Assembly (NCBI RefSeq): GCF_057098645.1
Contig: NZ_CM169472.1
Length of the DNA stretch: 64,000 nt
Direction: 5' to 3' (one strand)
Part shown: positions 34,807-46,375 of the stretch, in pieces
Layout of the letters: every line of letters starts with the position of its first letter
Position numbering within the stretch: the first letter of the stretch is position 1
Notes under the pieces: model-generated
What the model saw: the letters and a program-made list of their open reading frames with translations, nothing else
Databases searched by the model: none
Told to the model about the DNA's origin: nothing
Program-made: the position numbers and the translations under genes

Positions 34807-38635
<3,829 letters not shown>

Positions 38636-38930
38636 TTCCACATCCTCTTTTCTCAATTCTGTAAGTAGGAAGCCTGATTGGTTATGCGGCAGGCCTGGAG
38701 CGAGGATAGGAAGATGCGATCGGCAGAACATGACGACCCAATGGGATTCGTGATCGCTTTCATGCTTTTCGTTGGGCGGTAGAGATCTACGTTTTCGCGA
38801 AAAAGTAGACATCTGTGAGCACTGGTACACAGCATCGAACACATCTTTAAAAAAAAGATGTTTTTTCAATCGATTAAGCAGAACTTGTGGGCGCATTACC
38901 CGGGCTTGCAGGCAAAAAAGAGATCTAGAG

Positions 38931-39647
38931 ATGATCTACAAAAGCATTGCGGAGCGGTTAAGAATTCGACTTAATTCCGCAGATTTCACGCTAAACAGCC
39001 TTCTTCCCGGTGAAAAAAAGTTGGCGGAAGAATTTGCGGTATCGCGGATGACCATCCGTAAAGCGATTGACCTGCTGGTAGCGTGGGGGTTGGTGGTCCG
39101 CCGCCACGGCAGCGGCACTTACCTGGTGCGCAAAGATGTACTGCATCAAACCGCCAGCCTGACCGGGCTGGTGGAGGTGTTAAAACGGCAGGGAAAAACA
39201 GTCACCAGCCAGGTGCTGATTTTTGAAATCATGCCTGCGCCTCCGGCCATTGCCAGCCAGTTACGGATTCAAATCAACGAGCAGATCTACTTCTCCCGTC
39301 GCGTTCGTTTTGTGGAAGGGAAACCGCTGATGCTGGAAGACAGCTATATGCCGGTAAAACTGTTCCGTAACCTTTCGCTGCAACATCTGGAAGGGTCGAA
39401 GTTTGAATATATTGAACAAGAGTGCGGGATTTTGATTGGCGGTAATTATGAAAGCCTGACGCCGGTGCTCGCCGATAGACTGCTGGCGCGGCAAATGAAG
39501 GTAGCGGAACACACGCCACTGCTGCGGATCACCTCGTTGTCATATAGCGAGAGCGGGGAGTTTTTGAATTATTCAGTGATGTTCAGAAATGCCAGCGAAT
39601 ACCAGGTGGAGTACCATTTACGGCGACTCCACCCGGACAAGAGTTAA
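38931..39647 (+). CDS. yidP: GntR-family transcriptional regulator YidP
   Basis: 238 aa from [10 protein letters not shown]...; N-terminal GntR HTH, UTRA-like C-terminus. Confidence 0.88.
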
Positions 39648-43093: not shown

Positions 43094-44326
43094 TTAGCGA
43101 TCAGTTTCGGTGATCCACAGCTGGCCGCCTTCCATCCACGCCAGCCACTGACCATCCGGCGAGAAGACCACGGCGTCCGCAGAAGGTGGATTGGCGTGGT
43201 TTTCGGTTAAATACTCAACCTCGCCGCTTTGCGCATGGGCACAAGCAATTCGATTACCCAGCACAAAGCCCAACCATTCTCCTGACGGATGCCAGTTAAA
43301 TGCAGACTGAATATCCGTTTTGTTATGGGTTAACTGGCGCGGCTCGCCGCCCTGTGGCGAGATAAGCCACAGTTGCACAATGCCGTTATCATCTCGCATT
43401 AAAAACGCGATTTGCGTACCCTGCGGATTACAGCGCACCCAGTGGCGCGGGACGTTGACTAACCCCGGATAAGCCCGATGGTGGGTAAAGGTTAAACGTC
43501 GCTGCACGACGCCACGCGGTGGCGCGGGCAGGGTTGTTTCCGTTCCACTTAACGGCGCATCACCTGCTGCTTTCCAGCCAGCTTCATCTTGCGGTAACTC
43601 AACGATAAACAGCTCCGGCACTTTCTCGCCCTTTGGCGAAAGCGTATCGCCAATAAACGCCAGCGCGTGATTTCCTACCCATCCTTCTTCATAAGCACGA
43701 TTGATTTCATCGCTGCCAGGCTGCGGCGTGGGCGTTGTTTTACTCACCAGTGCGCACCAGTGGCTACCGCTGTATTCACGCGGATGCTGCTTTTGTACGT
43801 TGACCGGGCCAAACGGTGCAGCAACCCCGACGTTTCGCAAATCCAGCGCCGGGCTGCGTTCATGCATTACATGGTCGTTATAGGTAAAGCTCACCATTTC
43901 ACCGTTCGGGCTAAAGACATGCACATGGCTGCCGCCGCGCAGCGCTCCTGGGGTGTACGGTGCAGTAATATCCATTGCATCGAGATTGCTCACCTTGCCG
44001 CCTTCAGCAATGACTCCGCGCCGATGATGGAAATCGTAATACCATGTTTCATCAGGATTTTCCGGGCCGTGAATGAAGACATATTTTTCTGACTTCGGAT
44101 GAACGGTCACCACGCCGACGTGTGCGCCCTGTGACGCGCGATAGATAACCTCGACCTCTCCAGTATGGATATTCACACGCTCAATGGTCTCGCCGGTAAA
44201 CGACGCCCCAGAAGGACGCACGTCAAATACCAGCCACTGGCTGTCGGGCGTCCAGGTATTGGTATTGGTGAGCAGGTGATTACGGGGAGCAAAGGTTATC
44301 TGTTTCATGGCGTGGTCCTGATACAA
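43094..44326 (-). CDS. yidR: DUF3748 beta-propeller protein YidR
   Basis: 410 aa ORF in the conserved position between yidQ and cbrA. Confidence 0.85.
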   Translation of the reverse strand: MYQDHAMKQITFAPRNHLLTNTNTWTPDSQWLVFDVRPSGASFTGETIERVNIHTGEVEVIYRASQGAHVGVVTVHPKSEKYVFIHGPENPDETWYYDFHHRRGVIAEGGKVSNLDAMDITAPYTPGALRGGSHVHVFSPNGEMVSFTYNDHVMHERSPALDLRNVGVAAPFGPVNVQKQHPREYSGSHWCALVSKTTPTPQPGSDEINRAYEEGWVGNHALAFIGDTLSPKGEKVPELFIVELPQDEAGWKAAGDAPLSGTETTLPAPPRGVVQRRLTFTHHRAYPGLVNVPRHWVRCNPQGTQIAFLMRDDNGIVQLWLISPQGGEPRQLTHNKTDIQSAFNWHPSGEWLGFVLGNRIACAHAQSGEVEYLTENHANPPSADAVVFSPDGQWLAWMEGGQLWITETDR

Positions 44327-44408: not shown

Positions 44409-45509
44409 ATGGAACATTTCGACGTGGCGATTATTGGCCTCGGCCCGGCAGGGTCGGCGTTGGCGCGAAAGTTAGCAGGCAAAATGCAGGTGATCGCGCT
44501 GGATAAAAAGCACCAGTGTGGTACTGAAGGTTTCAGCAAACCCTGCGGCGGTCTGCTGGCACCGGACGCGCAGCGATCTTTTATTCGCGATGGACTGACG
44601 CTTCCTGTCGATGTGATCGCCAACCCGCAGATTTTCAGCGTCAAAACCGTCGACGTCGCCGCATCGCTCACGCGTAACTACCAGCGAAGCTATATCAATA
44701 TTAATCGCCATGCTTTCGACTTGTGGATGAAATCGCTGATCCCCGCCAGCGTTGAGGTTTATCACGACAGCCTGTGTCGAAAAATCTGGCGTGAGGATGA
44801 TAAATGGCATGTCATTTTTCGTGCAGACGGTTGGGAGCAGCATATTACCGCCCGCTATCTGGTCGGTGCCGATGGCGCAAACTCGATGGTGCGGCGACAT
44901 CTCTACCCGGATCATCAAATCCGTAAATATGTCGCTATCCAGCAGTGGTTCGCAGAGAAACATCCTGTGCCGTTCTACTCCTGCATCTTTGATAATGCGA
45001 TAACTGACTGTTACTCATGGAGTATCAGCAAAGACGGTTATTTTATCTTTGGCGGTGCCTATCCCATGAAAGACGGTCAGACGCGTTTCACGATGCTGAA
45101 AGAGAAAATGAGCGCCTTTCAGTTCCAGTTTGGTAAGGCGGTGAAAAGCGAAAAATGCACGGTGCTGTTTCCCTCGCGCTGGCAGGATTTTGTCTGCGGT
45201 AAGGACAACGCCTTTCTGATTGGTGAAGCGGCGGGATTTATCAGCGCCAGCTCGCTGGAGGGGATTAGCTATGCGCTGGATAGCGCAGAGATTCTGCGTG
45301 CGGTGTTCCTGAAACAGCCGGAGAAGAGCAACGCCGCTTACTGGCGCGCCACCCGCAAACTGCGTTTAAAACTCTTCGGCAAGATAGTAAAAAGCCGATG
45401 CCTGACCGCACCGGCTTTAAGAAAGTGGATTATGCGCAGTGGTGTGGCGCATATTCCACAGTTGAAAGATTATCCAACGTGCTTCACATCGCCCACCAGC
45501 AGGATGTAA
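44409..45509 (+). CDS. cbrA: FAD-binding oxidoreductase CbrA (colicin E2 tolerance protein)
   Basis: Starts [24 protein letters not shown] (FAD-binding GxGxxG). Confidence 0.9.
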
Positions 45510-45585
45510 GAGAGCGCGCCAATCAACGCGACGGCGGAGATATAAACCAGTGCCGGGGCGAACCCATAGCCTTGCAACAGATATT
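45471..45585 (-). pseudogene. dgoT: short 3' remnant of an MFS transporter gene, possibly dgoT
   Basis: Minus-strand frame encodes ...[37 protein letters not shown], a terminal TM helix with no upstream gene body; it sits where dgoT would end, convergent with cbrA. Confidence 0.4.
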
Positions 45586-45718
45586 AGTCCACAAAAAAAC
45601 ACCTCATAAGAAAAGGTCTTATATCGGGCAGAAATCTGAAAAGGGATATCAGGCGCTAATCAGGAGGGAAAGAAGAGTATGCTTTCAACGGCTTAGCTAC
45701 TCGTTTAAAGGATTAATC

Positions 45719-46375
45719 ATGAAGTTGAATTTTAAGGGATTTTTTAAGGCTGCCGGTATGTGTTCTTTGGCAGTTTCGTTGACCGGATGTATCACCTGGG
45801 GCTTGGTTTCCAATACTGCAAGCCGTCCACATGCCGAGCAATGGCGGTCAGACACGATTAAGGGTTTATCGCTGGCAGAGGATAGTAACGGTACGAAAGG
45901 CTATGTTTTTGTTGGTGAATCGTTGGACTATCTGTTGACCACCGGCGGCGGTGAGGTGGTTAAAATGCTGAACGATCCGGCAATTCATGGTGAAAGAATC
46001 ACCGTTTCTGATAACGCGAAATTTATTTTAAGCAGCAGTAATAAGAATTTCTCTGGTGCTATTACGCTCTATTACGACTGGAACAACGAAGAAGATAAGG
46101 CACTGGCAACACAATATGGTTTTATTTGTGATACCCGGCGTTGTACATGGATGCTGGACGGCCTGAAAGGCTCTATCCACCAGAAAAATAAAAAAGCGGA
46201 TTACTCAAACGTGATGGTTTTCCATCAACCCTTTACGGTGGGATTTTATGAGTACAAAGCATCAGATGGCGTTCCGCGCGGCCTCGTTAATGCGCTGCTA
46301 CCAGTCACTCTTACGCTGGATATAGTAACGTCACCACTCCAGTTCCTGATTTTATGCACTACCAGAAATTGTTAA
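45719..46375 (+). CDS. yidX: lipoprotein YidX
   Basis: 218 aa from [24 protein letters not shown] (lipobox). Confidence 0.85.

Follow-up and report, generated by a model that had tools for sequence, protein, structure and literature searches.

The chromosome described here has lost the D-galactonate operon dgoRKADT from between cbrA and yidX, and the short interval now in its place is, with high confidence, the scar that one non-homologous deletion of 4,750 bp left behind. The allele occurs in O145:H28, O55:H7 and O157:H7, and beyond these in a minority of E. coli. That one event was responsible is suggested by the identity of the junction among its carriers rather than by a phylogeny. The finding is correct and already known: this is a catalogued, annotated and lineage-wide deletion of the dgo operon. 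K-loops and K-islands are segments of the K-12 chromosome that are absent from O157 strains Sakai and EDL933, as defined in the genome comparisons of 2001. The dgo region is listed as K-island 161/K-loop 267 and is variably present in porcine EPEC O45 (PMC2749873). In EDL933 and Sakai, K-island #161/K-loop #267 has the same junction as our sequence; compared with theirs, the stretch studied here, from the O145:H28 lineage, has two further SNPs close to the junction, no longer has the cbrA stop, and carries another yidX allele. In the literature searched, we found the K-island listing and nothing that says explicitly that O157 or O145 strains are unable to use D-galactonate.

We analyzed a stretch of 64,000 nucleotides (RefSeq assembly GCF_057098645.1, contig NZ_CM169472.1), referred to below as the window, which belongs to a chromosome of the E. 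coli O145:H28 lineage. [quoted passage not shown] The source strain, of the O145:H28 type, may therefore be other than RM9872. The window starts inside the LEE (1-7612), with escU, escT, escS, escR, espL, cesAB, escE, and ler, followed by espG and an SdiA-regulated-domain gene. Further along, the interval between nepI and yicN (12357-13017) contains one gene for a RelE/ParE-family toxin and one that is HTH antitoxin-like; adeQ, coding for an adenine permease (13638-14971), is a frameshifted pseudogene in the matching RM9872 record; and a block of hypothetical genes between uhpA and ilvN (22070-25062), one of them frameshifted, looks like a small strain-variable insertion. Genes for a 6-phospho-alpha-glucosidase and a PTS transporter are annotated as intact at 35697-38635. 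Their K-12 counterpart, located upstream of yidP, has a PTS gene with an internal stop and an adjacent frameshifted gene, and Escherichia sp. E1V33 has no equivalent of window positions 35671-39543.

The first-pass annotation, made from the letters of the window, placed the D-galactonate operon of K-12 between cbrA and yidX. This is correct: dgoT, dgoD, dgoA, dgoK, and dgoR are all annotated there, in the order cbrA, dgoT-dgoD-dgoA-dgoK-dgoR, yidX. The order in the window is yidR(-), cbrA(+), dgoT remnant(-), yidX(+), yidA(-), yidB(-), gyrB(-) (Table 1). In K-12, cbrA (coordinates 7410-8474) and dgoT (8471-9808) are placed tail-to-tail with their ends overlapping by 4 bp. The window retains this placement with overlapping ends, the remnant running from 45470 and the K-12-type cbrA stop position falling at 45471-45473. 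The gap, put at about 210 bp in the first-pass annotation, indeed measures 209 bp from the end of the cbrA open reading frame (45509) to the yidX ATG (45719), or 245 bp if counted from the K-12-type stop position. The two values differ because that stop codon reads TAT in the window, versus TAG in K-12 and O157, and cbrA therefore runs on for another 12 codons (366 codons versus 354). These extra codons (45471-45509) are read antisense through the dgoT remnant. Over 354 amino acids, CbrA is 97.2% identical to its K-12 counterpart. The long form of cbrA is also annotated in the scar-bearing strains PapRG-04-4 and 06-00048, and not in O157 Z1825, GF66.1, or ETEC6335.

Table 1. Features of the yidR-yidX region in the 64-kb window (positions are those of the window).
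Feature	Position	Strand	Basis
yidR	43094-44308	-	ORF/annotation
cbrA (yidS), 366 codons	44409-45509	+	RefSeq annotation of the identical RM9872 locus; comparison with K-12 and O157 tails
dgoT 3' remnant, codons 409-445 plus stop, pseudogene, 114 bp	45470-45583	-	tblastn, base identity, PGAP
Deletion junction	45583/45584		blastn and alignments; breakpoint coordinates from E1V33 versus K-12
In-frame TAA directly 5' of the remnant	45584-45586	-	Translated reverse complement of 45470-45589 (D*YLLQ...)
Diverged junction-core tract	45554-45624		Alignments to K-12, O157, E1V33, and other genera
135 bp kept 5' of yidX	45584-45718	+	Alignment to K-12
yidX, lipoprotein-like, 218 aa, divergent 'type B' allele	45719-46375	+	Annotation; allele comparison

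DgoT is a major facilitator superfamily (MFS) D-galactonate:H+ symporter of the ACS/SLC17 family. The minus strand of the gap had been described in the first pass as encoding the last 37 or so residues of a transporter-like protein, and these are residues 409-445 of DgoT: they match window positions 45583-45473 with 35 of 37 residues identical (94.6%; E = 1.8e-14 in a tblastn search within the window). At the nucleotide level, 102 of the 114 bases are identical to the 3' end of K-12 dgoT, in register with the stop codon, and blastn aligns window positions 45000-45575 continuously to K-12 cbrA and dgoT at 95.5% identity. The match is real and well past chance level. What is left of dgoT is its final 37 codons, positioned and oriented with respect to cbrA as in K-12; what K-12 has and the window lacks are the other 408 dgoT codons, dgoD, dgoA, dgoK, dgoR, and a promoter region with an inverted repeat, which together make up everything that function requires. 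A full-length dgoT open reading frame, of about 445 amino acids with the MFS transmembrane helices, is thus absent. The stop codon noticed immediately upstream of the remnant is also there, a TAA supplied by the right-hand (yidX-upstream) flank (TTAG). Since only residues 409-445 are encoded and a TAA directly precedes them, the remnant is a pseudogene fragment, not a gene, and PGAP/RefSeq calls the RM9872 locus a pseudogene (I3Y_RS29110, 'hypothetical protein, missing N-terminus'). The proposal of a deletion scar at the 3' end of dgoT is borne out by this in-register alignment, which includes the stop codon overlapping the end of cbrA.

Alignment to K-12, which the first-pass annotation had suggested, placed the breakpoints. 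By blastn and alignments, homology ends at position 8584 of the K-12 locus (L002) on the left and resumes at position 13335 on the right, with 4,750 bp missing in between: dgoT codons 1-408, dgoD, dgoA, dgoK, dgoR, and 141 bp from between dgoR and yidX. K-12 has a perfect 10-bp inverted repeat, TGTAGTACAA / TTGTACTACA, at L002 positions 13303-13312 and 13323-13332, that is, inside the deleted segment and ending two bases short of the right breakpoint; we take it to be part of the dgo promoter/control region. There is no insertion sequence (IS) element at window positions 45470-45718, no direct-repeat family in the K-12 locus has copies at both 8584 and 13335, and microhomology at the junction amounts to 1-2 nt at most. 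Together, these observations point to an illegitimate, non-homologous deletion. An IS- or repeat-mediated deletion was rejected, there being no IS element and no direct repeat of about 8 bp or longer at both breakpoints. In the mechanism that we propose, one deletion would have removed dgoR, dgoK, dgoA, dgoD, codons 1-408 of dgoT, and the promoter region with the inverted repeat. The 37 C-terminal dgoT codons would have stayed behind as a dead fragment abutting the yidX upstream region, and cbrA and yidX would have become co-directional neighbors.

The junction was searched for with a 91-bp query in 5,426 complete E. coli genomes. Of these, 413 have one full-length match each, always on the chromosome, and partial matches are absent from the whole set, also in the sensitive mode of blastn. 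Carriers of the scar belong to O145:H28, O55:H7, and O157:H7, with EDL933 and Sakai among them (97.8% identity in both, with 100% of the query covered); the alignment of O157 Z1825 agrees with the same junction. Carriers also include non-EHEC strains from chicken meat, pigs, a baboon, and humans. The deletion is a shared allele, not one peculiar to the source strain.

The number of complete genomes from which dgoD is missing, 405 of 5,426, is near that of the scar-bearers. On the other hand, dgoD is present in 5,021 genomes, and the sum of 413 and 5,021 exceeds 5,426; therefore, at least 8 genomes hold both the scar and a copy of dgoD, and a secondary copy is possible in principle. These genomes suggest that a second dgo copy or a re-acquisition exists somewhere. 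They also provide an argument for the view that the dgo genes have moved to another locus or replicon and that D-galactonate is still used, as do a few E. coli plasmids of 150-180 kb that carry dgoD and dgoA (CP084536.1, AP026488.1, NZ_AP022088.1, and NZ_CP128940.1). We nevertheless consider such a relocation very unlikely in the source lineage. Plasmids seldom carry dgoD (matches in 10 of 72,556 records, several of which are chromosome-sized). The 64-kb window contains no match to DgoD, DgoA, DgoK, or DgoR, and the only other matches to DgoT in it are UhpC and UhpT, distant MFS paralogs with approximately 21% identity. Of the dgo genes, dgoD alone was searched genome-wide, the other Dgo proteins being searched within the window. 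For this, a chimeric query that joined an espG anchor to dgoD was run on E. coli chromosomes; in the best 60 records examined (26 O145-type genomes including RM9872, then O55:H7 and O157:H7), none had dgoD on the chromosome, and the match was to the anchor alone. An earlier chimeric query, in which the LEE intergenic region and espG were joined to dgoD and dgoA, contained an ERIC-type anchor repeat that matched several places per genome. The ler-espG spacer (within 4300-5520) is where this repeat, which we take to be of the ERIC type, is found, and it has several matches in every E. coli genome. The claim of the first pass that the operon is absent thus stands for DgoD, DgoA, DgoK, and DgoR within the window and, genome-wide, for dgoD on the chromosomes of the 26 O145-type genomes.

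In strain comparisons the dgo region acts as a presence/absence island, which would also agree with a lineage that never had the operon, other E. coli lineages having gained it by insertion between cbrA and yidX. However, an insertion does not predict a 114-bp in-register piece of the dgoT 3' end (35 of 37 amino acids), and this refutes the idea. Moreover, the geometry of the 4-bp overlap between the ends of dgoT and cbrA in K-12 is kept in the window, and dgoKADT is also carried by Klebsiella, Enterobacter, and Salmonella, where in the first two it is found beside yidR and ibpA. We regard primary absence of the operon as scarcely credible and its deletion as the origin of the scar. It is just as hard to believe that the remnant left by this deletion has been re-used as a small gene. 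A 35-codon open reading frame with a TTG start at 45577 on the minus strand does exist, with the potential to encode a 35-aa hydrophobic peptide, and the junction core is invariant among scar-bearers. However, neither strand of 45300-45800 showed a promoter-like site, the C-terminal residues vary by lineage (KHVG in O145 and TRVG in O157), cbrA is translated antisense through the remnant in O145-type strains, and PGAP calls the remnant a pseudogene. Finally, an assembly or sequencing artefact as the cause of the gap is virtually impossible and is refuted by the occurrence of the same junction, once each, in 413 independently assembled complete genomes, as well as in the draft genome of another Escherichia species.

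A simple recent deletion does not account for the strong sequence divergence around the junction. The remnant is identical to K-12 at 75 of 78 bases in its 3' part, versus 27 of 36 in the part beside the junction. To the right of the junction, approximately 13 of the first 46 bases differ from K-12, together with a 1-nt indel, after which identity is nearly 100%. The resulting core of about 70 bases differs by approximately 25% from all the dgo-positive E. coli in the comparison, and it is invariant among scar-bearers, with a slightly shorter left side in O157 than in O145 and E1V33. Read in the dgoT frame, the changes beside the junction are synonymous third-position changes (TAC>TAT, CAG>CAA, GGT>GGC, TAC>TAT, and GGT>GGG), to which O145-type strains add synonymous GCA>GCC and CCT>CCG; one core change, Ala>Leu (GCG>TTG), is nonsynonymous. 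Because the changes are mostly synonymous and in third positions, the core resembles sequence that evolved in a distant lineage while the gene still worked, and it is unlike the product of random damage.

The core differs from K-12 about as much as Salmonella does in these codons. In a comparison of 33 nt, the core has 9 mismatches to K-12 and 8-10 mismatches to dgoT from Salmonella, Klebsiella oxytoca, and Enterobacter ludwigii. These three were considered as donors of the core and rejected, none being closer to it than K-12. The leucine of the scar (YLLQGYGF) is absent from the 120 best DgoT homologs and from the named cluster members with a complete C-terminus, all of which have YLAQ. No dgo-positive carrier of the core sequence was found in the 5,426 E. 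coli genomes, the GTDB species representatives, or the JGI metagenome contigs, the last of which gave no matches to the core. Its exact left 20-mer is present in one GTDB species representative, Escherichia sp. E1V33, which itself bears the scar (core at positions 10631-10701 of locus L011).

Judging by sequence identity, E1V33 is clearly a non-coli Escherichia at this locus, with flanking genes that diverge from E. coli by 4-13%: it is 93.5% identical to the window in gyrB, 91.8% in yidR, 88.3% in yidQ, and 86.7% in yidE, whereas the same genes are 96.5-100% identical among E. coli. In the 98 bases centered on the junction, E1V33 and the window have no mismatches; the flanks have 2-5 in every 50 bases. 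Within E. coli, the cbrA and yidX backgrounds of the scar are heterogeneous: identity in cbrA between scar-bearers is 95.7-98.7% (1.3-4.3% differing), which is about the same as between scar-bearers and dgo-positive strains. A tentative explanation, which we offer as possible rather than probable, is that the scar is a horizontally traveling loss allele and not a plain vertical marker: it may have arisen once, in a deeply diverged haplotype, and spread among Escherichia lineages by homologous recombination. The flanks would then have been repeatedly overwritten by dgo-positive donors to within a few tens of bases of the junction, while any replacement of the junction core by such a donor would have brought the operon back. 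Alternatively, the core may owe its divergence to local mutagenesis when the deletion occurred.

The second unusual feature of the locus is yidX, whose alleles fall into two classes that have diverged deeply. That of the window is 61.5% identical to the K-12 allele in amino acids and 76.8% in nucleotides, both from gapped alignments, which we prefer as ungapped comparisons understate between-class identity; nucleotide identity to K-12 and O157 is approximately 77%. Strains elppa4 and A10 have yidX genes that are 98% identical in nucleotides to that of the window. The divergent stretch coincides with the coding sequence, beginning and ending with it. In the other scar-bearers examined, yidX is of the K-12 type, which suggests that yidX was swapped in the O145 lineage once the deletion was in place. 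Only two points merit a further look, namely this allele dimorphism of yidX and the junction core. The main result is of little consequence and finds a catalogued gene loss again.

Presumably lacking a D-galactonate transporter, dehydratase, kinase, and aldolase, the strain should fail to grow on D-galactonate, as predicted from the pathway. Between cbrA and yidX, no terminator-like or promoter-like site was predicted on the plus strand; with the two genes co-directional and no predicted terminator between them, transcription may read through from cbrA into yidX. D-Galactonate is a gut sugar acid that has been tied to E. coli physiology in host habitats, and in some E. coli isolates the structural dgo genes are reported to be lacking or pseudogenized, with dgoR intact (PMC12288454). 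Those isolates and the window are alike as cases in which E. coli has naturally lost its potential for D-galactonate catabolism; however, the isolates keep dgoR, whereas the window has neither dgoR nor its operator region. O157:H7, O55:H7, and O145:H28 pathogens are predicted to be unable to use D-galactonate, and the scar could act as a simple lineage marker. If the core is really a relic of a distant haplotype that is shared across species, then it would present a clean, small case of a deletion allele spreading by recombination, and it would illustrate the protection that an indel gives neighboring sequence against overwriting.
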